From the IMG/VR virus record IMGVR_UViG_3300014656_000017, positions 46,909-110,908 of that record: DNA of 64,000 nt; one strand, given 5' to 3'. Each line of letters starts with the position of its first letter. Positions within the stretch are counted from its first letter, which is position 1. Positions 6,126 to 33,143 of this stretch are shown piece after piece. Below the pieces are notes generated by a model. That model was not told the origin of the DNA and ran no database searches. It worked only from the letters and a program-made list of their open reading frames with translations. The DNA comes from a virus. Made by a program: the position numbers and the translations under genes.

Positions 6126-6144
6126 ACTAGCTCCTTTATTGACC

Positions 6145-6165
6145 GTGCGTGTTAAAGATGCGCAC
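6145..6165 (-). promoter_or_regulatory. Putative translational-operator hairpin upstream of the polymerase RBS
   Basis: GC-rich GTGCG-N11-CGCAC stem 8 nt upstream of AAGGAG. Confidence 0.35.
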
Positions 6166-6181
6166 ACCCTTATTTTAATTA

Positions 6182-12020: not shown

Positions 12021-12048
12021 ACTTATCCGCCTTCTATATATATTTATG

Positions 12049-16225: not shown

Positions 16226-16233
16226 AGACTCCT

Positions 16234-17064: not shown

Positions 17065-17636
17065 GTTATTTCCTTCTGAGGATCTAAAAATATAACGCCT
17101 TGTTTAGACCCTTCTGCTTTATTATTATACCTGTAAATTACATTATTTCCATATATATTTTTAAAGTATTTTTCGTAGTTTTTAAATGTGTATGAAATAT
17201 TATCATGAGTGTCATATCCATATTCAGGATGGTATGGATTATGAAAGTCGTGTATAACTAAATATGGCTTAATTGATAATTTGGCCATAAACTCTAGTTC
17301 TCTTTGTAGTATCATTCCTCCACCCCAATGTGCATCTAAAAAGGCAAGGATTTTTTTATTTTTTAATCCATCTAAATTGTTTTCAAGCACTGTAGGGCTA
17401 TCTCCCAAAAAAATATCAAAATATTCACATTTTTTCACTGCATTAGTTGTAATGGTTAAAAATTCTTCGTTTTTTTCAATTGCCATTACAGGAATTTTAA
17501 ATTTAACCAAAAACTGGGTTGTATTTCCTAGATGCGTACCTGTTTCGATAATTAGATTTGGTTTAAATGTTGATACTATCTTAATAAATGCTTTTTGCAA
17601 ATATGTATCCCCTTCAAATGCAATTTTATCTATCAT
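17061..17636 (-). CDS. Class I SAM-dependent methyltransferase
   Basis: IIETGTHLG, GDS, FLDAH, VIHD. Confidence 0.7.
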   Translation of the reverse strand: MIDKIAFEGDTYLQKAFIKIVSTFKPNLIIETGTHLGNTTQFLVKFKIPVMAIEKNEEFLTITTNAVKKCEYFDIFLGDSPTVLENNLDGLKNKKILAFLDAHWGGGMILQRELEFMAKLSIKPYLVIHDFHNPYHPEYGYDTHDNISYTFKNYEKYFKNIYGNNVIYRYNNKAEGSKQGVIFLDPQKEIT

Positions 17637-18514
17637 ACTATTTCCTGTTGTATTAAATTTTTCCAATATTCTAAATCCAATTTTTCATAATTATATACTT
17701 TTTCCGTAATTTTTCTATAGGCACTTTTTAAAAATTCTTGATTTAACATTTTCCACGCACCTTCTTGTCGGGGTATTTTTAACATAGGCAGATCATTAAA
17801 CCCTTCATTATGAACACAGTCTACAACAATAGGTATAGAATTTAAATACAAACTTTCCCACATTCTGTGACTATCTGTTCCTCCGCCCATAGGACAGATA
17901 TTAAAAACTGATTTTGAAATATCTCTCCAATAATCTTCTTGTGATCTGCCTCTAATCATTGGTATAAACTGAGTATCTTTAGCAACATGCATTCTATTAC
18001 AATGTGAAGTGTTTATGTCAAAATTTTTATACACTAAAAATTCTTTTTTGTTATTCTCTCTTCTTATTTTATCAAACAGATTTAAATTTCCATGAGGCCA
18101 TTGTGAATTAGCTACTCCAATTGGAATGGGTATTAATTTATCATGTCTGTATTCAACGTTTTGTGCAAACCATTTTTTAATTTTAGGATCATCTAAATAC
18201 TGTTTATATTTTTCAGAAATCCATGCATCTGAATTGTGTGTAACTAGTATAAAGTTATTTTTTAATAATGGATAAATTTTATTAAAGAAAAAGTCTAATA
18301 TGTGTGTATATACAAATATTGATTTAGCTTTTTGTAACTCAAATGGAATATCAGTAGTATTAGATTCAAAAAAATGATAATTTGTTTTTGTATTTTTAAG
18401 TTGATTTCTTAAAAGAGCTGAATCCCCATTGTCTTTGGCATTTAGAATAACAGTAAAATCTGTTAATTCTTGTATTTTTTCACCTGTTATATAATTTATT
18501 TGTAAACTGTCCAT
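17633..18514 (-). CDS. Exostosin-like glycosyltransferase (GT47-like)
   Basis: THNSD, WFAQN, PIPIG, FNICPMGGGTDSHRMWESLYLNSIPIV. Confidence 0.75.
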   Translation of the reverse strand: MDSLQINYITGEKIQELTDFTVILNAKDNGDSALLRNQLKNTKTNYHFFESNTTDIPFELQKAKSIFVYTHILDFFFNKIYPLLKNNFILVTHNSDAWISEKYKQYLDDPKIKKWFAQNVEYRHDKLIPIPIGVANSQWPHGNLNLFDKIRRENNKKEFLVYKNFDINTSHCNRMHVAKDTQFIPMIRGRSQEDYWRDISKSVFNICPMGGGTDSHRMWESLYLNSIPIVVDCVHNEGFNDLPMLKIPRQEGAWKMLNQEFLKSAYRKITEKVYNYEKLDLEYWKNLIQQEIV

Positions 18515-19815
18515 AAGTCTCTTTCAGATAATGCTTTTTTTGTTATTTTAAAAATATATTTATATAATTTAAACGGAAGTGGTATTCTAATAAGCACAGG
18601 CGTAATAGGCCTAAAAATTTTTGGATAAGCTGTTATTAACGGCCACAGTTTATGTAATCTTTCTATTAAAATTTTTTTCTTAAGGTTTAAGGTAGACACT
18701 CCAAAAAATCCATCATCAACACTATCATCATCTGGAATGAATCCATCTTTTTTAGCCTTTAAATAAATTTGAGATCCTTTATAACATTGAAGTAAAGCAC
18801 TCCATGAAGATGTAGGTTTACATTTAATATTAAAATCTAACGTTTCAAAGGCATCTGATAAAGAATTCTCAATAGGTAAACCAATAATATTTTGTAATCT
18901 AGTGCGTATATTGTAATTATTACATATTTGAATTGCTTGTTTAACTTGTTCTTTGTTTCCGACTCTGTTTAAAATTGTTTTTCTATTCTCATCATTAGCA
19001 GATTCTAATGCCAAACTTATTATTGCACAACCAGCACTAGATAAAATTTTTGCTGCTTCATCTGTTATATCATTTGGATGAGCATTACATATAAAAGGCA
19101 AGTTAATTTTTTTCTTGTATAATATTGCAAATTCTTTTAGCCATTCAATTGGCTTTATAAAACCATCATCCATTATATGAATCATTTTTAGAGGTTGCCA
19201 CTTTTCTTTAAGTTCTAATGCTTCATTTATAACATCTTCAACATTTCTAATTCTTATAATATTTTTACATTGACCTTTATGTAATTTGTTCCACCTATTA
19301 TTAAAACAATACGAACAATTAAATTTACACCCTCGCCTTGTTATCATATTTTTAATTGGATTGTTTTTTATATCTGGATATGAATATATCAATTTTCTAT
19401 CTGGAAAAGGAATTTTATTTATATCTATAAGTATAAGATCTTTATATTTTTGGCCGTTTATAAAATCTAAAATTGAATTCTCTCCTTCACCTCTAATATA
19501 ATTTTTTCCTTGAAAAATGTCAGGATCAAAGGTTGCAGCAGGACCACCATAAAGTGTTATATAGTTTAAATTGGGCAACTTGTTTTTAATTGTTGCATCC
19601 AGATCAAAATAATATTTTTCCGATCCAGAATATACAGAATAACATATATAATCTGGATTGATTTGTTGTACATAATAAAAAAAGCTATCGTTGTTGTATA
19701 TATCCCGGCGCAACAAATATGTCAAATTTCCGGCGCTTTTCAATGAAGACAACAAATACATAATACCCAAATGTTCCATTTTCATTTCTTTTACAATGAA
19801 TAATATTTTTTTCAT
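18496..19815 (-). CDS. Cobalamin-dependent radical SAM enzyme (class B methyltransferase-like)
   Basis: HLGIMYL..GGPAAT..GEGE B12-binding domain; RGCKFNCSYC; ALES; IIGLP. Confidence 0.88.
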   Translation of the reverse strand: MKKILFIVKEMKMEHLGIMYLLSSLKSAGNLTYLLRRDIYNNDSFFYYVQQINPDYICYSVYSGSEKYYFDLDATIKNKLPNLNYITLYGGPAATFDPDIFQGKNYIRGEGENSILDFINGQKYKDLILIDINKIPFPDRKLIYSYPDIKNNPIKNMITRRGCKFNCSYCFNNRWNKLHKGQCKNIIRIRNVEDVINEALELKEKWQPLKMIHIMDDGFIKPIEWLKEFAILYKKKINLPFICNAHPNDITDEAAKILSSAGCAIISLALESANDENRKTILNRVGNKEQVKQAIQICNNYNIRTRLQNIIGLPIENSLSDAFETLDFNIKCKPTSSWSALLQCYKGSQIYLKAKKDGFIPDDDSVDDGFFGVSTLNLKKKILIERLHKLWPLITAYPKIFRPITPVLIRIPLPFKLYKYIFKITKKALSERDLWTVYK

Positions 19816-20610
19816 TTAATCATCCACATTTGGTAATATACGATATGTGTCTAGTGTAATATGTGTTGTATTTTTGAAATGAGTAAATGAATAATTAGTA
19901 GGAGGTATAAATCTTTCTGTGGCAAACATAAACAGATTTGTATTATTTTTATATATATTTTTAACTGTGCTTGCCAAACAAGATTGACCTGAAGTCACAG
20001 ATATATAATTTTTACAAGAAAACATAACATCACAATAATGTTCTAAACTGTTCACATGATAGTCATTGTTAATATCTTTTATAAAGGGCAATTTAGGTGC
20101 TACAGTATATTTACCATTATGTGTAATATTAACAGGATGATCTAATTTATATTTTTCTATGAGTTTATATACACATTTATTAAGATTGTCAATATTACGT
20201 GGAATATCACAATTATAAAATTGTGTATAAAATGAATATGTGCAAAAATCAAAAACACTTGTATTTTCAAGTTCTTTAATAAACTTTGGTTTATAATATA
20301 TTTTACCATAATGAAATTTAGGCTCTAGTTTATAGGCGACTTGAATTTCTAAAAAATTATTCCAATTTCTGTTATGCTGATTTAAATGTTTAATTGGTGT
20401 ATCCATCCACCACATATCTGTACTGTCTTTTTTGCCTAACAAGTATGGGTTTTTGCCCCATATGAAATCGTATATTTCTTGATTGCGGCACGCATTTTGA
20501 TTACTCAAATAGCATTTAATTCCTAAATTATGACACATTTCTGGTATAGGAGAATGAGTTAAATTGTCTCCCAACCCTCCCCACGGCTGATATATTATTA
20601 TTTCATCCAT
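19816..20610 (-). CDS. Putative glycosyltransferase-like protein
   Basis: N-terminal WGGLGDNL and C-terminal SVTSGQSCLA, resembling GT9/GT11-type loops. Confidence 0.45.
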   Translation of the reverse strand: MDEIIIYQPWGGLGDNLTHSPIPEMCHNLGIKCYLSNQNACRNQEIYDFIWGKNPYLLGKKDSTDMWWMDTPIKHLNQHNRNWNNFLEIQVAYKLEPKFHYGKIYYKPKFIKELENTSVFDFCTYSFYTQFYNCDIPRNIDNLNKCVYKLIEKYKLDHPVNITHNGKYTVAPKLPFIKDINNDYHVNSLEHYCDVMFSCKNYISVTSGQSCLASTVKNIYKNNTNLFMFATERFIPPTNYSFTHFKNTTHITLDTYRILPNVDD

Positions 20611-20623
20611 TATATTTTATCCA

Positions 20624-22174
20624 TTACCACGTTAACAAAACATTATTAGAACACGTTTGAGGTGTTTCTTTTATGATATTATTTTTTATTCCTTTTTCTG
20701 ATAAAAATACTGACAATTCATTAGCCGTGTATCCTCTTAAATTATTGTGTATAATATAACCATGTTTTGATTTTGATAAAACATTATCAATATAAAAATC
20801 TTGAACCTCTTTAGTACATTCTGAAATGGCATAGTTACTAATAACCAAATCATATGTATTATTAAATACACAATTATTGTTTGTCCCAATTATATAATTG
20901 GTTTGATCTGCTAAATTTAATGTATCCAAATACTTTTTAATCAAATTTATTACTTCTTCTAAATCAACAAAGGTATATAATTTAGGTTTGAACAATTGTC
21001 TTAAAACCGTATATTGACCTCCATAACCAGCACCAATCTCTATAATATTTAAATCATTTAAATCGTGTAGATCTTTTAAATCTTTAAGCACCTTTATGTA
21101 TCGTAAAGTAGTTGGTGAAAAGGTTCCAAAATTGTATTTATATTTTGTAGGATTGCCTATTATATCGTTTTTGCTAAATTTGTTTAAATTATCACTGATA
21201 TCTTTGTCATATTTAAAAGCTTCATAATATGCTAAGCCTTCTTCATATGATACATGTTCTAATATTTCTTTATATTGTGGCATATTTTTAAAGTTATTAA
21301 AATAAGTATTATTCTCACCGGCTTTTGCACATATTTGTTTATATGTTATAATATCTGATACTGAAGTTTTTTTTGTATAAAATTCTTGTAATTTTTTGTT
21401 GTGAATATGTAGATTAAAAATGTTATATTCTTTATTGTTCATTATTAAAATGGGCCGATTGTTTTTAAATTCAACTGATATTTTGTTTTCAATTAATTTT
21501 GATCCCACATATTTATCCGTTTCAGGTTTAGCACCACCAAGAAATTGTCCGTAAGAAGAGGGGTCAAAACAATAATTAAAGTTGTTGAAATTGTTATCTG
21601 AAGGCAATATTGGTAATATATCAATATATTTTTTGTGTTGATTGATGTAATTTAGTAATCGCATTTCATGTGGCATTCCGCCTACTTGTTTTTCAAGACT
21701 GTTTTCTCCTTGTATTATTAAATTAAGTAGTTGATTGTTAACCTCATATAAACTTTTATCGCTTTTAATGTAACTAAAACCAAACGAATAATTTAACGGA
21801 TCTGCACATGACATCAAAAAATCATGTTTTATTAATTCATTTTCTATTTTATTTATATTATCATATATTAATACATCATTATCAATATGAATAATATTTT
21901 TTATATTGTATTGTTTTAAAAAAGCTTCAATATAAAAAATTCTTAACATAGCATTTCTAAATAACTCTCCCATAGGATCGTGTAAATAATAATTACCAAT
22001 ATCTGGAACTGTTAATGTAGTAAGAGGTATATGTATAATTTGTTCATGGTGTTCAATATTAAAATTTGTTATAATATAAATTTTACTGCACGGATTTGTA
22101 TAGAGTATTTGTTTTATACAATACTGTATATGTTTAGGCCATTTAGATCCCTTATGGAATAATACAAAGTTCAT
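20624..22174 (-). CDS. Fusion: GT-like domain + putative sugar O-methyltransferase
   Basis: HIDNDV, FDPSSYGQ, NLHIHNK; then TLRY, EIGAGYGG, FVDL, ISNYAISE. Confidence 0.7.
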   Translation of the reverse strand: MNFVLFHKGSKWPKHIQYCIKQILYTNPCSKIYIITNFNIEHHEQIIHIPLTTLTVPDIGNYYLHDPMGELFRNAMLRIFYIEAFLKQYNIKNIIHIDNDVLIYDNINKIENELIKHDFLMSCADPLNYSFGFSYIKSDKSLYEVNNQLLNLIIQGENSLEKQVGGMPHEMRLLNYINQHKKYIDILPILPSDNNFNNFNYCFDPSSYGQFLGGAKPETDKYVGSKLIENKISVEFKNNRPILIMNNKEYNIFNLHIHNKKLQEFYTKKTSVSDIITYKQICAKAGENNTYFNNFKNMPQYKEILEHVSYEEGLAYYEAFKYDKDISDNLNKFSKNDIIGNPTKYKYNFGTFSPTTLRYIKVLKDLKDLHDLNDLNIIEIGAGYGGQYTVLRQLFKPKLYTFVDLEEVINLIKKYLDTLNLADQTNYIIGTNNNCVFNNTYDLVISNYAISECTKEVQDFYIDNVLSKSKHGYIIHNNLRGYTANELSVFLSEKGIKNNIIKETPQTCSNNVLLTW

Positions 22175-22947
22175 ATTTTTATAAAATTTTTATTAGGAAT
22201 AAACAAATCTATATCATCTTTTTCAGGTGGTTCCTTCCACATGCTCTTACTTACTACAGGATAAAATATTTTCTCTTGATTTCCTAAAAATGCCGGCCAC
22301 CATGAAAAGGTAGAATGTGAAATTAACAAATGTTTAGATTTTAGCATATATGCATAGTCTAACATTTCTGCTTCTGTATTAGCCACATCAAACTTATTAA
22401 CTCTTTGTGTGCTTAATACTTTAATACCTTCACTCATTAATTCTTGAATATATTTTGTTGTACAATCATCAGTTACAATTGACACTTTTGTATACCCTAA
22501 TGTTTTAATTGCATTTTTATAGAAATCATGGGATATAGTTATCCCAATGTCTACATAATCGGTCTCTCTTAAATGTATAACCAATTCATCTTCGTCTGGC
22601 TCGGCCATGCCCTCTTTTTCCCACCAAAAAAATTCACTTAAAAAATCTTTATAATCTATATAGTATTCTGCTTTTTGAAGAAAAGAATTAACTACTACAT
22701 CTCTCTCTGTGGTTAATAAATCGTTCATATCAACCCAATGATTGCCATATTTTCTGGTCGTAATGGGATTAGCTATAAAGCCTATTTGTGATGGAAGACC
22801 AACGTCTTGCGATGTTTTGGGAAAGTTTGGAAGAGGCGCACAGAAACATTCACATCCTCTTTTTTGAGCTAGTATTCTACTAAAGGCATACACAAACATT
22901 CTATTGCCCATTCTGCCCCAAGGATCATATTGTCCAATAACTTTAAT
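22171..22947 (-). CDS. GT11 alpha-1,2-fucosyltransferase-like protein
   Basis: GRMGNRMF, HLRETDY, STFSWW. The frame is open upstream to an ATT at 22947 with a GGAGGA RBS (track start is 22911). Confidence 0.8.
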   Translation of the reverse strand: MKVIGQYDPWGRMGNRMFVYAFSRILAQKRGCECFCAPLPNFPKTSQDVGLPSQIGFIANPITTRKYGNHWVDMNDLLTTERDVVVNSFLQKAEYYIDYKDFLSEFFWWEKEGMAEPDEDELVIHLRETDYVDIGITISHDFYKNAIKTLGYTKVSIVTDDCTTKYIQELMSEGIKVLSTQRVNKFDVANTEAEMLDYAYMLKSKHLLISHSTFSWWPAFLGNQEKIFYPVVSKSMWKEPPEKDDIDLFIPNKNFIKI

Positions 22948-23764
22948 AGTAGCATCCTCCCTCTACATTTTCAGGTTTTTCAGGAATTTCATCTTTTGAG
23001 GGTCTTGTCCAAAAATCATTATAAAGAGTTTTAAATTGTTCTATATCATCCCATCTTCGCCCTCTTATACCAAATAGGATTTGTGTAGGACCGCCCATGT
23101 GAATTCCTATCTTGCCCATTTTCTTTGCATGTGCAGTTAATAAAATAGATGCCCCACCAGTTCCTATAATAGCTACATCATAATCAATTTTATTCATTTC
23201 ATTTTCAGCCCATTGTGCTGCTTCTAAAGTAGAATTAAATGGTGTTGAGGGATTGATAACTTTTGAATGAGGATATTTAATTGTTTTAAGTTCGAAATCT
23301 GGCAATATACCATTTGGCCATATTTTATCTTTTATCTTGTATTGCTTTTCTATAGAATTAGCGAAGGGACTTATAACTAGAACTTTTTTATCTTTTAATG
23401 AATGAGACCATGGTGGAGTTCTAAGATATGGTTCAATGTCTTGTAATTGTATAATATGAGATTTTATTTGTTGTATTATAGATTGCTCAAAGCCTGGTAA
23501 TATTTTATTCCACAATGGGATAGCATCTAGTGTATATAATGCCTTTAAATATTCTGCTCCAAATTTATTATATTCTTCTTCACTAAAAGGATATATACCT
23601 GCAATATTAGTGCCTTCAAATTCTAAATCTGAAAATATTTTAAAATTCTTTTTATAATATGAAAACAATAGTTTCAATTCGACAACACCAATTTTGCCTA
23701 CAGCACACTTTTCGCCTGTTTTTAAATAATGACTGATAAAATTGTTGCCATCTACGAAATTCAT
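22943..23764 (-). CDS. Hypothetical sugar-modification protein (possible GT-D fold)
   Basis: WSHSLKDKKVLVISPF, DVAIIGTG, GIHMGG..QILFGI. Confidence 0.55.
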   Translation of the reverse strand: MNFVDGNNFISHYLKTGEKCAVGKIGVVELKLLFSYYKKNFKIFSDLEFEGTNIAGIYPFSEEEYNKFGAEYLKALYTLDAIPLWNKILPGFEQSIIQQIKSHIIQLQDIEPYLRTPPWSHSLKDKKVLVISPFANSIEKQYKIKDKIWPNGILPDFELKTIKYPHSKVINPSTPFNSTLEAAQWAENEMNKIDYDVAIIGTGGASILLTAHAKKMGKIGIHMGGPTQILFGIRGRRWDDIEQFKTLYNDFWTRPSKDEIPEKPENVEGGCYY

Positions 23765-25176
23765 ATTTTATGTATCCAAGTATCCGTATTACCCCAATGT
23801 GTATTAGTTCCTAATAGTTTGCTTATATGTTGAGGAAAACTTGTTTCATTTTGCAACAATTTCCACCTGTCATAAATGCCTTCATGCCCACCATACCACA
23901 TATTTTTAAATTTAACATCTTTTTCAAAATAAACTGCATAATGATTAAATCTAACCGGAATGAGAATTCCTAATCCATTGCCGTTAACCAAACATGGAGG
24001 CTCATGTGACTTAAACATATCTTTCTTCCAATGCCATAATCTTCTATATGGAAGTGCTTTGCCTTCACCCCATTGCCCTCTTGCAAACAAATTAGGGCCG
24101 ACAAAATAATTACATAAAAATGCTCCTGTTTTGGCTTTATTTTGTGTTAAAATTTCTTCTGCTTTCTTAATATTTTCAATTGTCCATTGTTCATCAACGT
24201 CTATTTCCCATACAAAAGCTTCATCTGCAAGTTTATTAATTTCTTCTGCAGCTTTATTAACTTGCTGATCTTTTCCTTCCCACATTTTATCGGCTAATAC
24301 TAATATCAAATTATCATTCTTAGAAGATAGTTCAATTAGATATTCTCTAGTACCATCTACTGAAGCACCATTATTTTGATATTCATTGGACATATTATTA
24401 CACCAACTGGTGCTGCCTTGATTCTTTGATGCTCCTTCTATTACTACCCAATAATCAAAATTTTTAAGAATATATTCTGCATAATCGTTATGTTTTAAAT
24501 GATGTACTCCATTTAAAACGATTGTAAATGCGATTCTTTTCAATTTCTTTTCCTTTATATATAATGCATCTCCCCAAGTAGTCATTCCATTCTCCGTATC
24601 CCATTCAATTTCTTTTCTTACAAATCCAAATTTGGCTAAAAATTCATCTAAGTCTTGAATTAGTGCACAATCTTTATACACTTCTTCTCTGTTAACTTCG
24701 GTGAATATATAGTCAATGTTTTTTAAAGTAGTAGTGGCCCCTTTTAAAATTTCGAGTTCGAATCCTTGTGCATCCATTACTAAACAGTTGTATGATTCAT
24801 CTAAATCATATCCATCTATTTCTTTAACACTAACTTTAGTTTTTTTAGGAAAACTAATGTGTGGATATTGTTGTAGATGTACTTTAGGCTCAAGTAAAGA
24901 ATTTGATGCTCCGTTATTGTCTGTTTCCGTATACATAATACCAATATAAGAACGTGCTCCTAATGCTGCATTAATACATTTTATTTTAGGAAAGGGCTTA
25001 GCCGCTTCTTCCATCTTTTTAAAATTATTTTTGTCTGGCTCGAACAATATAGCATTTTTAAGTGTTGGAATAGAATTATATAGTGGAGCTTCTTGACCCA
25101 CATGACCACCAGCATGGATAACTCCAGTTATGTGCATGTTATATTTTGAATATAAATATGGAAAGCTTAATTTCAT
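23761..25176 (-). CDS. Fusion: FkbM-family methyltransferase + GT-A glycosyltransferase
   Basis: IHAGGHVG, FEP, MDAQGFE, WGDALY; then SVDGT, IDVDE. Confidence 0.8.
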   Translation of the reverse strand: MKLSFPYLYSKYNMHITGVIHAGGHVGQEAPLYNSIPTLKNAILFEPDKNNFKKMEEAAKPFPKIKCINAALGARSYIGIMYTETDNNGASNSLLEPKVHLQQYPHISFPKKTKVSVKEIDGYDLDESYNCLVMDAQGFELEILKGATTTLKNIDYIFTEVNREEVYKDCALIQDLDEFLAKFGFVRKEIEWDTENGMTTWGDALYIKEKKLKRIAFTIVLNGVHHLKHNDYAEYILKNFDYWVVIEGASKNQGSTSWCNNMSNEYQNNGASVDGTREYLIELSSKNDNLILVLADKMWEGKDQQVNKAAEEINKLADEAFVWEIDVDEQWTIENIKKAEEILTQNKAKTGAFLCNYFVGPNLFARGQWGEGKALPYRRLWHWKKDMFKSHEPPCLVNGNGLGILIPVRFNHYAVYFEKDVKFKNMWYGGHEGIYDRWKLLQNETSFPQHISKLLGTNTHWGNTDTWIHKI

Positions 25177-25796
25177 TGAGCAAACCTATTAACTATGTTT
25201 TCATCAAATTTAATCATTTCTTTTAGTCCAGGACCGCCATGTGGATAAGTTGGTATATATTTATATCTCTTAACACAGGAAGGCCAATTGATATTTTTTC
25301 TTGACCCTCTTAATAACTTAGATGTTTCAACACTTCGATCATTATCTTCAATGATGAAAGTGCACGGCAATCTTAAATTTTGTACATATCTAACGGCTTC
25401 GTAAAAATGACCACCGTCTTCACCACCGTCTCCAATAAAACACCATACTTTGTTTTTTGATCCTTTCAATTTAAGAGCTAATGCCACTCCAGCAGCAATA
25501 CCAGCAGTTCCGGCTAATACAGACGAAGTTAGAAAGTTTAACTTCTTATCAAACACAAACATGCTATCTCCATTTCGTATTTTTTGTTCTAATACTTTTG
25601 GATCTCCGCCTTTTAGCAAATAATGATAATGGGATCGATGAGTTGAAAAAACATAATCATCTGGTTTTATATCTTTAAATATGTGCAACAACTGATCTTC
25701 ATTTCCACCTGAAAAGTGTACCAAAAAAGGCAATTTGCCCTCTTTAAATACTTCCTTCATTTTGGTTTCAAAGTCTATTAATTCTTTTTTAGTCAT
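25173..25796 (-). CDS. ThDP-dependent E1 alpha/transketolase-like N-terminal subunit
   Basis: HFSGGNE, STHRSH, GDG...IEDN ThDP motif. Confidence 0.85.
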   Translation of the reverse strand: MTKKELIDFETKMKEVFKEGKLPFLVHFSGGNEDQLLHIFKDIKPDDYVFSTHRSHYHYLLKGGDPKVLEQKIRNGDSMFVFDKKLNFLTSSVLAGTAGIAAGVALALKLKGSKNKVWCFIGDGGEDGGHFYEAVRYVQNLRLPCTFIIEDNDRSVETSKLLRGSRKNINWPSCVKRYKYIPTYPHGGPGLKEMIKFDENIVNRFAQ

Positions 25797-26860
25797 TAGA
25801 CAAAGTTATCCCCATAAGCATTTAATAATTCGTGAATAAATATATTCTTATTATCATTCGCACAAAAACATTTGCAACATATTTGTGGGTTAAATTTATC
25901 AAAATGTTTTTTAGTTTCTTCACTAAACCATAATTGTTTAAATGATTGGTTTTTAATGGATCCTATTATTCCATCCGTAGAATATGCTTTGTTATGACAA
26001 TTATACACAAAACTATCAGCGCCTATTACAGGAATGGTTTGCATAATATAACATCTATTATAGGGTCGTTTAAAACTTTCTGGCTCAATTTTGTATCCAT
26101 CATATATTTTAAATTCACTGTTTTCATAAAACTTTTTTGTACACTCTAGTATATATGAAACTTCTTTAGTAATATTACGATGATATTCAACATAATTATC
26201 TACTTGAACTGGAAAATATCTTATATTATTAATACCTATTTCTTTTAACAATTTTGTCATTTCATGTATATTGTCTACATTTTCTTTGGTTATAATATAA
26301 TTAACAGATAATTCACATACATCATTTTTGATTTTATTAAACTCTATAATGTTAGATATTATTTGATCAAACATTTTTTCATTTCCGCCGCGTGATTTGA
26401 CAAAAGATTCTGCGTCGTAATAATCCATAGAAATTCTAATCCATTTAGCTTTAGATAAAACCTCCGCGCGCTTTCCATTCAATAATTGGGCATTTGTTAA
26501 TAGAGATAAATCTAGTCCATTGTCCAAAGTTCTTTGCATGGCTTCTGCTATATTAGGATGCATTAACGGTTCTCCACCGCCAGAATATGTTACACATTTT
26601 GTTCCCATATCTTTTAAATCATCTAGTACTTCAAACAGTTTATCTTTGGGCAACATATCAGATTCATTCATTGTTTCATGCATATGAACATTTTTAGCTC
26701 TATAAATACAAAATGAACAACTATGGCAACATTTATTAATAGGCTTTATTCGTACGTAGATAGGAGGTGTTATTCGTCCATCTTTAAAGGAATTAAGCTT
26801 TTCAGGAAACCATACTATTTTTTTGTTACTATATTTATTTGTTGTTTTTACCATACTCAA
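25796..26860 (-). CDS. Radical SAM/SPASM protein
   Basis: CCHSCSFC, SGGGEP, C-terminal Cys cluster. Confidence 0.85.
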   Translation of the reverse strand: MSMVKTTNKYSNKKIVWFPEKLNSFKDGRITPPIYVRIKPINKCCHSCSFCIYRAKNVHMHETMNESDMLPKDKLFEVLDDLKDMGTKCVTYSGGGEPLMHPNIAEAMQRTLDNGLDLSLLTNAQLLNGKRAEVLSKAKWIRISMDYYDAESFVKSRGGNEKMFDQIISNIIEFNKIKNDVCELSVNYIITKENVDNIHEMTKLLKEIGINNIRYFPVQVDNYVEYHRNITKEVSYILECTKKFYENSEFKIYDGYKIEPESFKRPYNRCYIMQTIPVIGADSFVYNCHNKAYSTDGIIGSIKNQSFKQLWFSEETKKHFDKFNPQICCKCFCANDNKNIFIHELLNAYGDNFV

Positions 26861-26866
26861 TTCCTA

Positions 26867-27919
26867 TTAAATAAATTCATCATTATTTTCGGGGTGTTTA
26901 AGTCTGTCTAAATATCTATTAATTACGTCTAATCGACAGCAATAATTTTTGCACGTTTTAAATTTCAATTTATTAATTTGTGCAATTATATCTTTTCTTT
27001 TCTGACTTGTCCAAATTTCTTTAAACGTATTGTTATACAGATTACCATAAACATATTTTGAATTATAAAAAATAGAACAAGGTATAATATCTCCTTTAGC
27101 ATCTATAATAACATAAAAATCAAAACCATGACATCCTGTATAATTTTTTTCTTGTGTAAGTCTTTCTGCACTTTTAACTCTAACCACTACAGTAAATTTA
27201 TCATCTTCCAATTTTTCCAAATTTTCTTTTAATGTTTGGTGTGCAAATTTATATATTCCAGTAGAGTATGAACTCTTTGGATGGTTATGCGCTGGTTTTA
27301 ATTGAAAATTATCAACACCAGCATTTTTACACCACAAGGCTAGCATTTCAGCTTCATTAATATTTTCATTCATTAAAATTAACTGTACGCCAATATCAAC
27401 CTTAAAATTGTTGGCCTTTTTAATTTCAACACAGTCTTTTATATTTTGTAATATAATATCGTAATTTTTTGGTGATATACCATGAATGAGTGCATGGGTT
27501 TCTGCCGTACCCGCATCTATACTAAATCGTAACCAAGAAAGATCTCCTAATATTTCTGTTGCCATTTTTTTATTAAAAAGAGATCCGTTTGTGGATATAG
27601 CTTGTCCCATTCCTAATTGTTTTCCATACTTTATAAATTCAACTAGATTCTTATGTAAGGTGGGTTCTCCTTCACCAGCATAGTAAACTGATTTAACTCC
27701 CATTTCAGCCATTTCTTTTAATGTATTCATAAATACATCTTTATCTATTTCATTCTTTCCATGTGTAGACCAATCTAAAATGCAAAACTTACATTTATGA
27801 TTGCATTTATTTGTTATGCCCACTTCTGCATGAAAGGGTACATATTCACCGTTCATCCACTTTATTAAACATTGAGGATGATACATCAGTTTATGTGAAT
27901 CACTATCTTTAACACTCAT
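26867..27919 (-). CDS. Radical SAM/SPASM protein (paralog of previous gene)
   Basis: CNHKCKFC, AGEGEP, STNG, C..IIPC..YGNL..C..CCR. Confidence 0.85.
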   Translation of the reverse strand: MSVKDSDSHKLMYHPQCLIKWMNGEYVPFHAEVGITNKCNHKCKFCILDWSTHGKNEIDKDVFMNTLKEMAEMGVKSVYYAGEGEPTLHKNLVEFIKYGKQLGMGQAISTNGSLFNKKMATEILGDLSWLRFSIDAGTAETHALIHGISPKNYDIILQNIKDCVEIKKANNFKVDIGVQLILMNENINEAEMLALWCKNAGVDNFQLKPAHNHPKSSYSTGIYKFAHQTLKENLEKLEDDKFTVVVRVKSAERLTQEKNYTGCHGFDFYVIIDAKGDIIPCSIFYNSKYVYGNLYNNTFKEIWTSQKRKDIIAQINKLKFKTCKNYCCRLDVINRYLDRLKHPENNDEFI

Positions 27920-28871
27920 TATTTTTCTCCTTGTTTATCCAGTATTTAACAAGATCTTTTAATGTATTTTTTAAACTATATTTTGGTTTCCAATTTAAAA
28001 ACCTCTTAACTTTTACACTATTTGGATGTACTGTCAACGTATCTATAGGTCTATAAAGTTTTTCATCTATTGTTAATTCAACATCTTTTAATTTGAATTC
28101 ATTTAACATAATCTTTATATAATGTTCTATATCATATGTTTTTGTTGCGCTTATGTTAAACACTTCTCCATTGTTTATTGCTCCGTTTAAATGATTTGTC
28201 ATTAGTTGATAATACACATCTACCATATCTCGTACATCTAAAACTGCTCGACTGGCTTTTATATTACCTACACGAATAATCTTATCTTGTTTGTTTAATA
28301 TAATTTTAGCTATTTGTCTTGCATCAGAAGATATAGAAAATGTTGAAGGTCTGCCTGGACCTGTATGTGAAAATGGTCTAACAATAAAATTTTTCAATTT
28401 GGCGTTTTGTGATCTTTCTAAAATATACATATCAGCAGCAGCTTTAGATACCCCATAAGGATTGTTAGGTTGTAATGGACAATTTTCCTTTATTTGTTCT
28501 TTCACATTTCCATACACATCGCCCGTAGAACACTGCATTATAATGCTTTGCGGGGCATTAGATAAAATGGATTCGCATAGATTTATAGTGCCTATAGTAT
28601 TAGTGTTAAATGTAAGTAGAGGATCTTGAAATGCTAGTGGTATATGTGTTTGCGCTGCCAAATGAAAAATTCCGTCAAATGTGTTATTAGTTAAAATATT
28701 AACTATTTGTTGTTTATATGTTAAGTCACACCGGTGATAATTAATACCTGTAATAGGCTGAAATCCTTCAGTTTTATATGTACCATGAACTATATGATTT
28801 TCAGCTAACAACTTTTGAGCTAAATGTTGTCCTGCAAAACCAGATACTCCTGTTATTAGAAATTTTAGCAT
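27909..28871 (-). CDS. GDP-mannose 4,6-dehydratase / Rmd-like SDR
   Basis: GVSGFAG, HLAAQT, YGVSK, RPFSHTGP, GN, DVRD, RPID. Confidence 0.8.
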   Translation of the reverse strand: MLKFLITGVSGFAGQHLAQKLLAENHIVHGTYKTEGFQPITGINYHRCDLTYKQQIVNILTNNTFDGIFHLAAQTHIPLAFQDPLLTFNTNTIGTINLCESILSNAPQSIIMQCSTGDVYGNVKEQIKENCPLQPNNPYGVSKAAADMYILERSQNAKLKNFIVRPFSHTGPGRPSTFSISSDARQIAKIILNKQDKIIRVGNIKASRAVLDVRDMVDVYYQLMTNHLNGAINNGEVFNISATKTYDIEHYIKIMLNEFKLKDVELTIDEKLYRPIDTLTVHPNSVKVKRFLNWKPKYSLKNTLKDLVKYWINKEKNNEC

Positions 28872-29386
28872 TGTTCAGTATATAAATCCTTATCTTCCAC
28901 AATTAAACAACTTTCATCAGCATTATATATGGTTATAATATCATCTGCTCTCAAAGGCAGTTCAATAACTGGCATATCACACATCTCTCTAAACGCTTTA
29001 GAAAAATTTTGTGTATGAGTGGCTCCAGTAAATAGTGGGTTTGCTTTATTTCCTACTACAGTTCTTATGATAACACGCGGATCAAATTCTCCGTGTGACA
29101 TTTGTTTAATTTTATCTAAATGGTTTACAATAGCATCGGCGGCATGGATAACAAAATCAAATCTTTCAATATATACAACAGGTTTAAATCCTTCTAAGCT
29201 TAATCCAATAGCCATAGAAACAATAAGATTTTCTGCTACAGGTGTTTCTATTAATTGATTATCTGGAATATTCACAAGAGTTCCATTGGCTTTAGATCCA
29301 TACTTCACATTATATCCAATAAACAATGTTTTTGGATCTTCAGCTAATATTTCCATTGAAGTTCTGATAGCGTCTTTATAGGTCAT
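28865..29386 (-). CDS. ThDP-dependent E1 beta/transketolase pyrimidine-binding subunit (no C-terminal domain)
   Basis: MTYKDAI, ETPVAEN, AIGLSL.GFKPV, IVNH, GATHTQ. Confidence 0.82.
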   Translation of the reverse strand: MTYKDAIRTSMEILAEDPKTLFIGYNVKYGSKANGTLVNIPDNQLIETPVAENLIVSMAIGLSLEGFKPVVYIERFDFVIHAADAIVNHLDKIKQMSHGEFDPRVIIRTVVGNKANPLFTGATHTQNFSKAFREMCDMPVIELPLRADDIITIYNADESCLIVEDKDLYTEQC

Positions 29387-30074
29387 ATATAGTCCATTTA
29401 TTTTTAAGAGTTGGTTTTTCATCGGGTGGATATCGGCGCGCATATCTGTGACTGTACAATTTATCTGTAATGTTTAAAGTGTCCGCAAGAAACAAAAAAC
29501 TGCTTTCTACTACATGAATTTCTTTCGCGTGTTCAATAATGTAACAGTAGTCGAATATATTATTTGTGTAATTTTCTTTAGCGTAAATGGTTGGAACATT
29601 TTGTGGTACAAGTTTTCTATTAATTATAAATTTACCTTTATAGTTATTTCCATTATCTTCGTGAAAAAATATATATTCTCCTTCTTTTACATTGAATCTT
29701 TTAAAAAAAGATTTTTCTCTTTCCATGTCTCTGTCAAGATAAAAATCGGTCCATCTTTTTTCAAAATCGATATTATATTGCTTGTAGAAAGCTTGATCAA
29801 AGTTTATGTTATTGTCTCTAAACTCATACCCTATTTTTAACAATTTTTGTGGATTATTTAGTTTAATCCATTCTTCAGCTTGTGGTTCTTTTTGGACCAT
29901 TAAATACTTAATATTTTTTAAATCCCTATACATCCACATTACAGAGGGAGCTTTAGATTGTTTAATAAACAAATTAATTTGATCATAATCTTTAATAAGA
30001 TTTCTTATTAATCCGTTGCACACTATATTATCCCCAAGGTGGAGATGTGGATAAATGTATACATTGTTATACAT
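29376..30074 (-). CDS. Putative glycosyltransferase-like protein
   Basis: HLHLGDNIVCNGLIR..AKEIHVVESSF; paralog of 30856..31545. Confidence 0.5.
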   Translation of the reverse strand: MYNNVYIYPHLHLGDNIVCNGLIRNLIKDYDQINLFIKQSKAPSVMWMYRDLKNIKYLMVQKEPQAEEWIKLNNPQKLLKIGYEFRDNNINFDQAFYKQYNIDFEKRWTDFYLDRDMEREKSFFKRFNVKEGEYIFFHEDNGNNYKGKFIINRKLVPQNVPTIYAKENYTNNIFDYCYIIEHAKEIHVVESSFLFLADTLNITDKLYSHRYARRYPPDEKPTLKNKWTIYDL

Positions 30075-30855
30075 TATAATTTCCCCCATGCCTATAAGGA
30101 AGATCGGTGAACATATGAATCTTTTCTGGTGGGACTAATAAATTAACGCCAAAATATTTAATAGGAGCATCACCCCATCGCTTAATAAAAATGTTTCCTG
30201 TTTTATCAATATAGTTGAAATAGTCCATATAGTTTTTTATAAACCACTGCACATTTGTAAGATCAAAATGTGTATGAAAAGTACCATTATATTTCAATTC
30301 ACCTATTTTAGGATTGTTTGGTTGATATTTTTTAACGGTTTCATATAATCCTTCTATTACATAATCATCATCTATTCCCTCTCCAACAGAAGCGTACAGA
30401 TAATCTTTTTCTTGCATTACAGCAAACGGATCATATTTCATTTTATCATAAAAATATGAATCAGAATCTATTCTAAGCAAATATTGAGCCGCTTTTATTA
30501 TAGGCAGTTCAAAAATTTTACCAGAATACAGTCTACACATATGCCTATAACCCATACTAAAAAATGCAGTCTTATCCCAATGTCCTTTAAATTTAATTGG
30601 TATTTGATCAATAATATCTTTAGAATAATCGAGATCAAATTGTATTTCTTGGAAAATAAATTTAATGTTTGGAAACATTTGTTGTAGCCTTTTAATATTG
30701 TTTGCGGGGCCTCCCTCGTGTAAAATTATTACAGGATAGTCCCACGTGCTTAAAAAATTATTGTATAACAATTTAAGACTTGACACAATCCTATATGCAT
30801 GAAGAGGGTGATGATAGTATAAATAACAGATTGCGGCATTAGGTATAATTTTCAT
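30067..30855 (-). CDS. GT15 (Kre2/Mnt1-like) mannosyltransferase
   Basis: YPVIILHE, GYRHMCR, LRIDSD, RWGDAPI, YRH. Confidence 0.8.
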   Translation of the reverse strand: MKIIPNAAICYLYYHHPLHAYRIVSSLKLLYNNFLSTWDYPVIILHEGGPANNIKRLQQMFPNIKFIFQEIQFDLDYSKDIIDQIPIKFKGHWDKTAFFSMGYRHMCRLYSGKIFELPIIKAAQYLLRIDSDSYFYDKMKYDPFAVMQEKDYLYASVGEGIDDDYVIEGLYETVKKYQPNNPKIGELKYNGTFHTHFDLTNVQWFIKNYMDYFNYIDKTGNIFIKRWGDAPIKYFGVNLLVPPEKIHMFTDLPYRHGGNYNV

Positions 30856-31545
30856 TTAATTATATATTATCCAATTTCTTTTAAGTGTAGGTTGAGCAAA
30901 AGGTTCAATATTTCTACTGTATTTATGAAGATATAATTTATTCCCAATGTCTAAAGAATCAATTAAAGGAGAGAAGCTACTAGGTATTACATGAATTTCT
31001 TTTGCTCTTTCAATGATCGTTAAATAATCAAATATATTTGGGGTTAATCCTTTTTCTGAAAAAACTATTTTTGGAATTGATATTAACTTTTTGTCTACAA
31101 TCATATTTCTGGCTACATCCTCGTGTACAAAGGCATATTCAGAATCGTCCAAGTTATATTTAATCTTTATTTTTTTATAAAATTGTTCTTCGCTAGGCAA
31201 ATCTCTTATAACCTTAAACCCCTCCCACCGTTTACTAAAATCTACTCCCATCTTATAATAAAAACTAAAATCATAAACTCTACTAGATCTATCAAAGGTT
31301 TGCATGCCTATCATGATATGAGGCAATTTTTTTTGATGAACGGTTAACATCATATTATATTCATTAAGAGTAGATATGCACTCTAAATTTTTAATGTCTC
31401 TATACATAAAAATGACAGAATCAATATGAGTGTGCATTACAAACAAGTAACATTTGTCAAATTTCGTACAGATAGCTCGAATGAGAGCATTGCACACTAT
31501 AAAATCTCCTAATCCTTGGCTTTGACATATATAAATTTCTGGCAT
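30856..31545 (-). CDS. Putative glycosyltransferase-like protein
   Basis: QGLGDFIVCNALIR..AKEIHVIPSSF. Confidence 0.5.
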   Translation of the reverse strand: MPEIYICQSQGLGDFIVCNALIRAICTKFDKCYLFVMHTHIDSVIFMYRDIKNLECISTLNEYNMMLTVHQKKLPHIMIGMQTFDRSSRVYDFSFYYKMGVDFSKRWEGFKVIRDLPSEEQFYKKIKIKYNLDDSEYAFVHEDVARNMIVDKKLISIPKIVFSEKGLTPNIFDYLTIIERAKEIHVIPSSFSPLIDSLDIGNKLYLHKYSRNIEPFAQPTLKRNWIIYN

Positions 31546-31581
31546 ATTACATGATTCTTTTTCTTTTACTTTCAATCATAA

Positions 31582-32337
31582 TCAACTTCTAAATTTATTA
31601 CTTACAACCGACCAGTCCGGGACTTGTTTAATATATGCAGCTAACTTTAAAACATCCTTATCTCTTTCAGGGCCAAGGTCTTCCCACAATTTATCACTAA
31701 TTCTTTCTCTATTATCGCCTATCATTCTTTGCGCGGTTTTGTCTGGCGCAGTCTTTTTAATAGTCCAGTGATTGTGTTCTATTAATATATGTGGAATATA
31801 TGTAATTCTTTTAAAAGCACTAAAAGTTTCCCACATCCAGCTATCAGAATAGTTTATTGGAAATTCGGGGCGGCACAAATATCCTAAAATCTCGTAATAT
31901 TTTTTATGGATAAAAGCATTTACACACAGGCGCGGGCCATGATACCCATCATTACAATGTACCATTTTAATTTGGTCTGGAGGACAATTTTTATCTGTAA
32001 ATTCATTTAATATTTCTGAATCCCATGCAGGCGTTCTAAAAACCATATCGTCACCAATATATCCAAAGATATCGTGATCGACCTGTGCTACAGCTGCCAG
32101 TTGATTCCATATTCTATTAATTCCAATAAACTTGCCTTCATTATGTATTGGAACTATATGAACAAAAGGTATAGCACTAGATATTTTTTTGACTATATCC
32201 TTTGTTGGATCATCGTCATCTATTCCAAAATATAAACTCACATTATTAATATCACTGACAGTAGTGATGATAGAACTTATCAAAGTAAGTTTTAAGTTGA
32301 GTCTTTCTCGACTGGGAACTAGCAATGCAATTTTCAT
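31582..32337 (-). CDS. GT2-like glycosyltransferase
   Basis: LLVPSRER, IDDDD, IGDD, YSD. Confidence 0.7.
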   Translation of the reverse strand: MKIALLVPSRERLNLKLTLISSIITTVSDINNVSLYFGIDDDDPTKDIVKKISSAIPFVHIVPIHNEGKFIGINRIWNQLAAVAQVDHDIFGYIGDDMVFRTPAWDSEILNEFTDKNCPPDQIKMVHCNDGYHGPRLCVNAFIHKKYYEILGYLCRPEFPINYSDSWMWETFSAFKRITYIPHILIEHNHWTIKKTAPDKTAQRMIGDNRERISDKLWEDLGPERDKDVLKLAAYIKQVPDWSVVSNKFRS

Positions 32338-33143
32338 AATATCTTTTTAGCATACTTCTTTTGTATATCTTCACAAATAGCTAATACCTTTTCAGGTGGT
32401 GTATCTGGAGTTTTAGTAGGAATGAATCCGTGCTTCTGAGCATACCATTGAGCTCCTTTTTGCATGCCCTCTGTCCATTCAGAGGTTTTTCGAATTACTG
32501 AATTGACTTCACTGCTTGCTAATTCATTAATATATTCATCACTATTAGCCAAATCAGCAAACCACCAAAATGGAGGATGTAATCCAGCTTTAATAATTCT
32601 ATATGTATGATCTACATGCTCCCAAGCATTTTGAAATCTTTCATCCATATATCCAATAGATTTAATAACACCTCTCAAATAATAACTAAAAGATCCTACA
32701 GAATTTGGATTTAATCCAATCTCAATTCCATTCTCATAATCAACTATTTGTCTAGGATTCTTAACGCCATATTGTCCTGGTTTAAAGTTAGCAGGCCCGT
32801 GGTATGCAAAATTAAGGTGCCATATTCCAGAAGCCTCTGCTGCTTTGATATATGCATTAAAAACATCTGGATTTTTAATTAACATATCATCTTCTATTAA
32901 AAACAAATGCTGACATCCATCTTGAATCAAATATCTCAGTGCTTCGTTTTTAGAAATGCCTACACATTTATTAGAACTGTGTTGAATAACTTCTTTTACA
33001 TTGCGTGTATAAACATCACTATCGTATGGCTTTCCATCATTGACTACTATTAATGTTTCTACACCAGGTATAGAAGCAAGACACTGTTTAAAGAAGTCTA
33101 CTCTGTTACACGTTAGTATTGCTGCGCCAATTTTATTATTCAT
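32334..33143 (-). CDS. GT2 glycosyltransferase
   Basis: TCNR, VNDG, KN, IEDD, GYMDE, EHVD. Confidence 0.8.
   Translation of the reverse strand: MNNKIGAAILTCNRVDFFKQCLASIPGVETLIVVNDGKPYDSDVYTRNVKEVIQHSSNKCVGISKNEALRYLIQDGCQHLFLIEDDMLIKNPDVFNAYIKAAEASGIWHLNFAYHGPANFKPGQYGVKNPRQIVDYENGIEIGLNPNSVGSFSYYLRGVIKSIGYMDERFQNAWEHVDHTYRIIKAGLHPPFWWFADLANSDEYINELASSEVNSVIRKTSEWTEGMQKGAQWYAQKHGFIPTKTPDTPPEKVLAICEDIQKKYAKKIL

Follow-up and report, generated by a model that had tools for sequence, protein, structure and literature searches.

Two nested putative sugar-tailoring modules, built around a miniature thiamine-diphosphate enzyme and radical SAM enzymes, in the glycan island of a T4-like phage

The formation of carbon–carbon bonds on sugars by thiamine diphosphate (ThDP)-dependent enzymes, including sugar branching, is already known: E1-type enzyme pairs of the alphaKADH2 group place two-carbon (C2) branches onto keto sugars (PMC12247030, PMC4753412), and an oxidoreductase followed by a split transketolase has been proposed for miharamycin biosynthesis (PMC12247030). 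Furthermore, one and the same alcohol oxidation is catalysed by the radical S-adenosylmethionine (SAM) enzyme BtrN in some lineages and by the NAD+-dependent NeoE in others (PMC13707489). Here we describe a five-gene block in the IMG/VR virus record IMGVR_UViG_3300014656_000017, situated in a stretch of 64,000 nucleotides (positions 46,909 to 110,908 of that record, hereafter the window, to which all coordinates without another locus name refer). The block encodes the alpha and beta subunits of an E1-type ThDP enzyme, a short-chain dehydrogenase/reductase (SDR) and two radical SAM enzymes (rSAM-A and rSAM-B); no description or biochemical study of such a ThDP/radical-SAM sugar cassette was found in our literature searches. 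Most likely, this enzyme set makes a sugar of unusual structure, carbon-branched or chain-extended, for a glycan that the phage produces. We give about an even chance to the reading developed below, in which the block consists of two nested sugar-tailoring modules within a phage glycan island of ∼18 kb and follows the pathway proposed here. New in this work are the phage-wide distribution of the cassette together with a complete minimal phage instance, the mutually exclusive partnership with rSAM-B or a zinc-dependent alcohol dehydrogenase, the associated glycosyltransferase family 9 (GT9)-like transferases, a beta–rSAM-B fusion and the dissection into two modules.

The five open reading frames (ORFs) lie where the original prediction had placed them, all on the minus strand, and are given here in their order along that strand.

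28865..29386, minus strand: beta, the Pyr-domain subunit of a minimal E1-type ThDP enzyme, 173 aa (Transket_pyr 1.5e-6; pyruvate dehydrogenase (PDH) E1-beta NF006667 1.4e-17)
27909..28871, minus strand: extended SDR, Rmd/GDP-heptose-dehydratase-like (GDP_Man_Dehyd 1.3e-58), module 2
26867..27919, minus strand: rSAM-A, radical SAM enzyme with one Twitch/partial-SPASM auxiliary cluster (Radical_SAM 5.4e-17, SPASM 1.6e-9), module 2
25796..26860, minus strand: rSAM-B, radical SAM enzyme with one auxiliary cluster (Radical_SAM 4.3e-17, SPASM 3.1e-5)
25173..25796, minus strand: alpha, the PP-domain (ThDP diphosphate-binding) subunit, 207 aa (E1_dh 4.5e-16, DXP_synthase_N 4.8e-9)

Adjacent genes of the block overlap by 1-11 nt or are separated by a 6-nt gap. 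The beta ORF stays open up to 29443, and the start yielding 173 aa was preferred because homologues measure 172-178 aa; for rSAM-B, the database gene call uses an ATG two codons further in (352 aa). No terminator-like site was detected on the minus strand inside the block, the counts of the promoter/terminator scan being equal to those of shuffled sequence and hence uninformative.

Full-length E1 enzymes have an alpha subunit of ∼320-370 aa and a beta subunit of ∼325 aa including a C-terminal domain, which in 2-oxoacid dehydrogenases docks the lipoyl-bearing E2 core (E3 being a further partner); transketolases combine PP, Pyr and C-terminal domains in ∼660 aa or in a split N/C pair of ∼270 + 310 aa. 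At 207 + 173 aa, the subunits encoded here are about half the normal length. Their best matches in the Protein Data Bank (PDB) are nevertheless E1 alpha and beta chains, and alpha matches the PDH E1-alpha model TIGR03182 at 2.3e-23. The alignment of alpha to a PDB E1-alpha chain (3e-9) is confined to residues ∼68-208 of 368, and beta covers the N-terminal half alone of solved E1 structures, the C-terminal domain being absent. Invariant residues comprise a GDG...N motif (G122/D123...N152) and STHRxHYH in alpha, and in beta ETPxAEN, with the cofactor-activating Glu, plus His89 and His124. NCBIfam scores of both subunits fall far under the equivalog cut-offs, and transketolase models reach 18-27 bits against cut-offs of 488-575. 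Neither a 2-oxoacid_dh (E2) family match nor a Transketolase_C domain was found across the 110.9-kb record, itself 49% complete; together with the domain matches this bears out an E1-type ThDP pair lacking an E2/E3 partner, as initially proposed. Alpha has at least 1371 homologue clusters of ∼200-220 aa, named automatically throughout. Both subunits match a single PHROG profile of 405 positions (PHROG 34187, phrog_34187; alpha at 9-194, beta at 234-405), which indicates that fused forms exist in phages.

Those automatic names, PDH or acetoin dehydrogenase E1 alpha or ‘transketolase central region’ protein, would suit a metabolic E1 or transketolase carried as an auxiliary metabolic gene or, as a variant, a phosphonate pathway decarboxylase. 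Such a role is scarcely credible, as the record encodes neither E2, nor a Transketolase_C domain, nor phosphoenolpyruvate (PEP) mutase, the subunits are too short, and the genes always lie among glycosyltransferase and sugar-nucleotide genes; architecture and context thus argue against an ordinary PDH or transketolase. We also considered a phosphonate pathway composed, as for fosfomycin, of a ThDP decarboxylase, a nucleotidyltransferase and a B12-dependent radical SAM enzyme (B12-rSAM). Since PEP mutase is absent from the record of the window and from a complete 34.8-kb phage carrying the cassette (see below), and since the PEP mutase matches in two metagenome-assembled genomes (MAGs) lie on other contigs than the cassette, this was rejected.

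Among described systems, the alphaKADH2 enzymes (AviB1/AviB2, Pau11/Pau12, the aldgamycin enzyme and KbDH-alpha/beta) resemble the pair most closely in having separate PP-type alpha and Pyr-type beta subunits of E1 ancestry, no E2/E3 and a place in sugar-tailoring clusters, with an expected pyruvate-derived C2 transfer to a keto sugar that is often followed by ketoreduction (PMC12247030, PMC4753412). In contrast to them, the pair described here is about half the size, missing the C-terminal region in alpha and the entire C-terminal domain in beta, and the family is often encoded as one fused ∼400-aa chain. It occurs in surface-glycan loci of phages, Proteobacteria, Patescibacteria and DPANN archaea rather than in actinomycete antibiotic clusters, and is obligatorily paired with a radical SAM enzyme or a zinc-dependent alcohol dehydrogenase plus a GT9-like transferase. 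The split transketolase of the miharamycin and amipurimycin pathways shares the proposed logic in which an oxidoreductase supplies the keto function and a split ThDP enzyme adds C2; however, it is a Streptomyces transketolase-family enzyme that has not been characterised in vitro and works with a conventional oxidoreductase, whereas the enzyme here is E1-type and its usual partner is a radical SAM enzyme. YerE/ErwE with YerF (yersiniose and erwiniose), which act in the acyl branching of CDP-4-keto-deoxyhexoses, belong to lipopolysaccharide (LPS) O-antigen clusters, and one locus of our set (L009) likewise has RfbF/RfbG next to the cassette; YerE, however, is a single-chain enzyme of the decarboxylase (acetolactate synthase-like) superfamily, unlike the E1-like enzyme here. 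No radical SAM enzyme is known to take part in the yersiniose and erwiniose pathways.

To place the block in a wider context, IMG/VR was scanned with an alpha alignment, yielding 138 stretches that encode an alpha relative, of which 80 loci were kept; some neighbouring genes were labelled from BLAST alone. rSAM-B is present in 61 of these 80 viral loci, in the order beta, rSAM-B, alpha in 58 and alpha, Y, beta, rSAM-B in three (Y being a small protein described below), and most of them belong to a phage lineage with genomes of ∼33 kb. One member of the set (G006) is a complete phage of 34,843 bp with direct terminal repeats and a G+C content of 52%, in which GT2, Y, beta, rSAM-B and alpha, located directly after the portal and P22-like coat genes, are the only sugar genes that can be recognised. 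An uncultured 735-kb phage has the gene order X (the other small protein family described below), beta, rSAM-B (an orthologue, 54%) and alpha, with two sugar C-methyltransferase genes on the flanks. The remark in the original prediction that such a route was not known to its author from phages therefore needs changing, as cultured cyanophages have the ThDP gene and the 138 IMG/VR stretches encode an alpha relative. In cellular genomes (scan with one genome per species), rSAM-B occurs in 23 loci from DPANN archaea, Patescibacteria, Methylococcaceae, Magnetospirillaceae and others, 13 of which have a close alpha and/or beta within 9 kb, two short contigs showing beta only; the bacterial gene order is alpha, Y, beta, rSAM-B. 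The exact five-gene order of the window was not found in any of ∼130 loci. Nonetheless, four or five of the genes do co-occur elsewhere, all five functions being encoded, in a different order, in Nanoarchaeota locus L024 (with fused alpha-beta, rSAM-B, rSAM-A and SDR adjacent) and four of the five in Nanoarchaeota L019 and L021; the lack of co-occurrence that would have counted against the original prediction was thus not observed.

Several loci carry more than one ThDP pair. In the Nanoarchaeota MAG locus L019, the genes for rSAM-A, alpha and beta are immediately preceded by a second miniature split ThDP enzyme, this one of transketolase type (3884-5145, minus strand; Transketolase_N 257 aa and Transket_pyr 163 aa), giving two different predicted C2-adding enzymes in one operon. 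A Magnetospirillaceae MAG (L010) encodes a full-length E1-like alpha/beta pair (14998-18267, plus strand; 312 + 374 aa) ∼5 kb past the end of rSAM-B and adjoining an SDR 31% identical to that of the window; this pair may be a classical alphaKADH2-type brancher. The 194-kb viral contig L093 has two different miniature alpha/beta pairs (7451-8606 and 11253-12392, plus strand) ∼3 kb apart, one of which is preceded by X and a zinc-dependent alcohol dehydrogenase (ORF 6435-7442).

The nucleotide-sugar setting assumed in the original prediction is borne out by the location of the block within a glycan island and by its relatives in nucleotide-sugar clusters (L009, cyanophage S-SM2 and the 735-kb phage). 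In L009, from a Methylococcaceae MAG, rSAM-B is followed by the RfbF/RfbG pair, a genuine glucose-1-phosphate cytidylyltransferase (1tzf 5.9e-123) with a CDP-glucose 4,6-dehydratase (1rkx 4e-105). Genes around the fused enzyme of S-SM2 encode a heptose kinase of the HldE type (1e-31), an epimerase of the HldD type (4.4e-61) and a heptose-1-phosphate adenylyltransferase (1.6e-33).

rSAM-B is missing from 18 viral loci and from the cultured cyanophages P-TIM68 and S-SM2, where a zinc-dependent medium-chain alcohol dehydrogenase (Zn-ADH) adjoins the ThDP enzyme, which is then usually fused (390-403 aa). Taking all loci together, rSAM-B is present in 87 and Zn-ADH in 19, with both in none. The partner label is clustered on a maximum-likelihood alpha tree (7 changes versus a shuffled mean of 22.6), on which 15 Zn-ADH-partnered forms group together, on a weakly supported branch (81/95), and a recent swap is apparent in L095 (X, Zn-ADH, beta, alpha), sister to L003 (X, beta, rSAM-B, alpha). 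More distant alpha/beta pairs adjoin rSAM-A-like enzymes. This exclusivity mirrors the BtrN/NeoE pattern, and the mutually exclusive replacement by Zn-ADH is an indirect hint of a possible alcohol-to-carbonyl dehydrogenase activity of rSAM-B. Alternatively, rSAM-B or Zn-ADH would act after the ThDP step on the new acyl chain, like YerF or Pau7, with the keto acceptor coming from another enzyme or the host. The YerE-then-YerF and Pau11/12-then-Pau7 schemes do put the reductase after branching (PMC4753412, PMC9306805), and L009 can provide a keto sugar through its own 4,6-dehydratase. We consider this order unlikely, as a radical SAM enzyme is an improbable stand-in for a simple ketoreductase, the complete 34.8-kb phage encodes no other enzyme to form a keto acceptor, and the known radical SAM/NAD+ equivalence concerns oxidation.

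Both radical SAM enzymes contain the CX3CX2C motif and only about four conserved C-terminal Cys, indicating one auxiliary cluster in each: C44/C48/C51 and C270/C288/C329/C333 are invariant in rSAM-B, and the CNHKCKFC motif of rSAM-A is accompanied by invariant C263/C281/C323/C328. The initial description of both as SPASM enzymes thus holds for the Radical_SAM and SPASM Pfam matches, but the single auxiliary cluster is Twitch-like, as in BtrN, and not a full SPASM arrangement. rSAM-B has 345 homologue clusters at ∼50% identity, with automatic names, and rSAM-A orthologues (42-69% identity) are found in DPANN archaea and viral contigs. In profile searches, the nearest solved relatives of rSAM-B were MoaA, BlsE, viperin-like enzymes, DesII and BtrN, most of which have nucleotides or nucleoside sugars as substrates; among its structural neighbours in the ESM Atlas are radical SAM–cytidylyltransferase fusions, which we regard as a lead only. 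BtrN and NeoE are comparable to the present system in the CX3CX2C motif with one four-Cys auxiliary cluster and in the radical SAM enzyme and Zn/NAD dehydrogenase sharing a pathway slot across lineages. However, the similarity of rSAM-B to BtrN itself is marginal (3.8e-6, partial), MoaA and BlsE being closest among solved structures. Moreover, the substrate here is presumably a nucleotide sugar instead of the aminocyclitol of BtrN, and the dehydrogenase role is a predicted one.

A metagenomic protein of 931 aa (P0245) consists of a complete beta in frame with rSAM-B, indicating that the two likely work together physically. This fusion, and the position of rSAM-B between beta and alpha with overlapping start and stop codons, would also be expected if the ThDP enzyme did not act on a sugar at all and instead fed low-potential electrons from oxidative pyruvate decarboxylation to the neighbouring radical SAM cluster. 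We regard this as very improbable: in 19 loci this ThDP enzyme is partnered by Zn-ADH, with no radical SAM enzyme in the vicinity, alpha and beta contain no Fe-S motif, and rSAM-A occurs in sister islands that lack any ThDP enzyme. Highly speculative, and in our view doubtful, is a further idea prompted by the gene sandwich and the natural fusion, namely that rSAM-B and the miniature E1 form one complex in which a sugar carbon radical made by the 5'-deoxyadenosyl radical couples directly to the ThDP-bound acyl (enamine/radical) intermediate; if true, an unactivated sugar C-H would thereby undergo radical acylation, an enzymatic C-C bond formation of a type not described before.

Inteins were encountered repeatedly in these enzymes. 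P0245 has one at or beside the CX3CX2C cluster loop, further ones are present in rSAM-B of L086 (5145-7268) and P0244, and an intein is suggested in the rSAM-A homologue of L122 (5777-7921), where the match of the 714-aa ORF falls into two parts. This recurrent invasion of radical SAM enzymes suggests that the sites concerned are highly conserved and important.

The gene directly upstream of beta is always X or Y, small proteins without a Pfam match, and the conserved unit (module 1: GT9-like transferase, beta, rSAM-B, alpha) consequently extends past the upstream limit first drawn for the block at 29386, to a transferase gene just outside it. In the window, X is represented twice.

29376..30089, minus strand: X1, compact GT9-like glycosyltransferase directly upstream of beta, with an 11-nt overlap (AlphaFold predicted local distance difference test (pLDDT) 83.6)
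30856..31575, minus strand: X2, compact GT-B GT9-like glycosyltransferase with a TTG start, a paralogue of X1 (39% identical) without a Pfam match

Orthologues of X1 are located upstream of beta in L003/L103, L004 and L093. Y and the bacterial 256-aa protein form one family (hhalign 100%). Treating X and Y as a single sequence family was tried and rejected, as hhalign gave 0.9% for X versus Y and 4.6% for X versus Z, and only an N-terminal H..LGD is shared. Both AlphaFold models (pLDDT 83.6 for X and 89.6 for Y) are compact GT-B folds, and as modelled X and Y are alike at the fold level only, not in sequence. With Foldseek, the best match of X was the GT9 structure 3tov (2.3e-6), followed by matches including TibC and WaaF (probability 1.0), and Y matched WaaC (3.3e-7, probability 1.0); template-modelling (TM) values of X and Y against GT9 structures were 0.63-0.65. 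The family model for X2 is based on X1. No Pfam Glyco_transf_9 match was obtained for X1, X2 or Y, which measure 216-256 aa; GT9 enzymes normally have ∼320-350 aa, and the family accepts heptose donors. A sequence-true Glyco_transf_9 (PF01075) protein abuts rSAM-B only in Nanoarchaeota L019. Based on its modelled fold, X1 is a candidate dedicated transferase for the product of module 1.

Turning to the SDR, each of its top-scoring solved relatives is a GDP-sugar enzyme (Rmd 6x3b 1.5e-40, GDP-heptose 4,6-dehydratase 7us5 1.6e-39 and Rmd 2pk3 2.6e-36). Its motifs are YxxxK and STGDVYG, in which Asp replaces the Glu of dehydratases; for comparison, P. aeruginosa Rmd has SSGDVYG, GMD STSELYG, DmhA SSSEVYG and the second Rmd (2pk3) SSEEYG. 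Against the GMD model TIGR01472 it scores 117.5 bits (cut-off 415). Accordingly, the enzyme looks nearer to an Rmd-type ketoreductase than to the GMD-like enzyme first suspected, and the GDP-mannose start assumed with it finds no support. Judged from these motifs and scores, with the dehydratase 7us5 scoring almost as well as Rmd 6x3b, a ketoreductase role is somewhat more likely than a dehydratase role, and the protein is probably a GDP-keto-sugar reductase.

SDR and rSAM-A (43-47% and 43-69% identity, respectively) are adjacent in L114-L119, L121 and L122 (viral scan with an rSAM-A alignment). L114 and L115 share further genes of the window's island (o251, an FkbM fusion, GT-D-like, GT11, o516 and o264, with o269 in L115 only), after which follow SDR, rSAM-A and GT47, plus o201 and a second GT47 in L115; L114 also has a B12-rSAM. 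Neither contains X, beta, rSAM-B or alpha, so that SDR and rSAM-A (module 2) work without any ThDP enzyme. In L117, the pair is found with a PfkB kinase, a cupin, a 4,6-dehydratase-like SDR, a DegT aminotransferase, a formyltransferase and glycosyltransferases. Thus, the five genes, initially treated as a single unit bracketed by the E1 subunits, are better described as two independently conserved modules, beta–rSAM-B–alpha and a nested SDR–rSAM-A. As judged by comparison of loci, the beta, rSAM-B, alpha sandwich is ancestral and SDR and rSAM-A are an insertion, owing to which alpha and beta seem to bracket three genes; module 2, now inside module 1 between beta and rSAM-B, probably works on the same sugar.

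The likeness of the SDR to GDP-heptose 4,6-dehydratase is one of several features bearing on a variant in which the oxidoreductase produces a terminal aldehyde, at C6 in a hexose or C7 in a heptose, and the miniature E1 extends the chain in the manner of 1-deoxyxylulose-5-phosphate (DXP) synthase or transketolase, giving an octose or nonose. The dedicated transferases resemble a heptose-donor family, the fused form of S-SM2 lies among genes of the ADP-heptose pathway, and alpha also matches DXP synthase. In addition, Zn-ADHs typically use primary alcohols, and the radical SAM enzyme anSME makes an aldehyde (PMC2996862). Still, we judge this outcome rather unlikely: the documented E1-type sugar enzymes all branch at ring ketones (PMC12247030), the L009 cassette lies beside a CDP-glucose 4,6-dehydratase as source of a 4-keto acceptor, and no ThDP-dependent chain extension of a nucleotide sugar was found in the literature searched.

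From the gene content, motifs, conservation, partner swapping, GT9-like folds and sugar-nucleotide neighbours described above, we infer the following pathway, conditional in every chemical step, in its substrate and in the order of its steps. First, rSAM-B, or Zn-ADH in other lineages, would oxidise a hydroxyl of a host-supplied nucleotide-activated sugar, by context a heptose or 6-deoxyhexose, to a carbonyl. Second, the alpha2beta2-type miniature E1 would decarboxylate a 2-oxo acid, probably pyruvate, and the ThDP-bound acyl anion would attack this carbonyl, giving an acyl-branched sugar or, where the carbonyl is a terminal aldehyde, a chain-extended one. Third, in the window, the Rmd-like SDR would reduce a keto group of either the ring or the newly added side chain, with rSAM-A adding a second radical step of unspecified type. 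Fourth, X1 and X2 would transfer the product onto a glycan made by the other transferases of the island. Of the acyl-branched sugar route with paired radical SAM enzymes put forward in the original prediction, ThDP-dependent sugar branching remains plausible, but the GDP-mannose start, the single module and the rarity in phages do not.

Several points weigh against this pathway. Family assignments of all members are predictions from sequence, with automatic names only, and the GT9 assignment of X and Y comes from modelled fold similarity, at TM 0.63-0.65. Catalytic equivalence is assumed for an alpha and beta that lack large parts of the characterised E1/alphaKADH2 enzymes. The radical SAM enzyme could equally be a dehydratase, an epimerase or a C-C-forming enzyme, and a role after ligation, for example side-chain processing as by YerF, would account for the partner swap as well. 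Contexts disagree on the sugar and its nucleotide (CDP-glucose, ADP-heptose and a GDP-type SDR), and 10 of the 23 cellular loci have no close alpha/beta within 9 kb of rSAM-B. Finally, SIS, NTP_transferase and cytidylyltransferase-family genes are all missing from the window's record (49% complete); lacking a sugar-activating gene there, the phage presumably begins from a host nucleotide sugar.

The window, which forms the final part of the 110.9-kb record, derives from a T4-like myophage with a G+C content of ∼30% and encodes UvsX, a family-B DNA polymerase with an intein, gp46/Rad50, class II RNR, a gp47/Mre11-type phosphoesterase, UvsW and UvsY. Identity of its UvsW to the nearest GenBank phage relatives, cyanomyoviruses, is only ∼28%. 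The surroundings of the block comprise the following features.

15245-33143, minus strand: glycan island of ∼18 kb with glycosyltransferases, FkbM methyltransferase fusions, SDRs and radical SAM enzymes
30067..30855, minus strand: GT15-family glycosyltransferase, alpha-mannosyltransferase-like, between X2 and X1 (Glyco_transf_15 1e-30)

Glycosyltransferases of the island are of the GT11, GT15, GT47/RXYLT1-like and GT-D-like types; GT15, GT11, GT47/exostosin and RXYLT1-like, mostly eukaryote-associated families, are combined here, with sister islands in the viral contigs L114 and L115. Within the island, a B12-binding radical SAM enzyme of class B, HpnJ/PhpK-like, is encoded at 18496-19815 (minus strand), for which sugar C-methylation is possible; B12-rSAMs are also frequent beside the cassette in DPANN loci. 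Elsewhere in the window, the family-B DNA polymerase ORF (2181-6167, minus strand; 1328 aa) has an Intein_splicing match over residues 233-661. The IMPDH/GMP-reductase gene (10276-12939, minus strand) is represented by two ORFs, the upstream half ending in a Hint domain and the downstream half starting with an intein C-terminal splicing motif, with a 384-aa ORF lacking a Pfam match between them; this arrangement looks like a split intein.

Overall, ThDP-dependent sugar branching has so far been described for a small number of antibiotic and O-antigen pathways, and the cassette described here would represent a far larger, unstudied branch. Experimental entry points are offered by the five-gene set of the complete 34.8-kb phage and by the version with Zn-ADH, which is oxygen-tolerant and found in the cultured cyanophages S-SM2 and P-TIM68, and the compact carboligase may serve the biocatalysis of tertiary alcohols. 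For the biology of these phages, the cassette leads us to predict hitherto unknown sugars, branched or of higher carbon number, on phage particles or on the surfaces of infected cells, and these would be relevant to the masking of receptors, to superinfection exclusion and to immune recognition.

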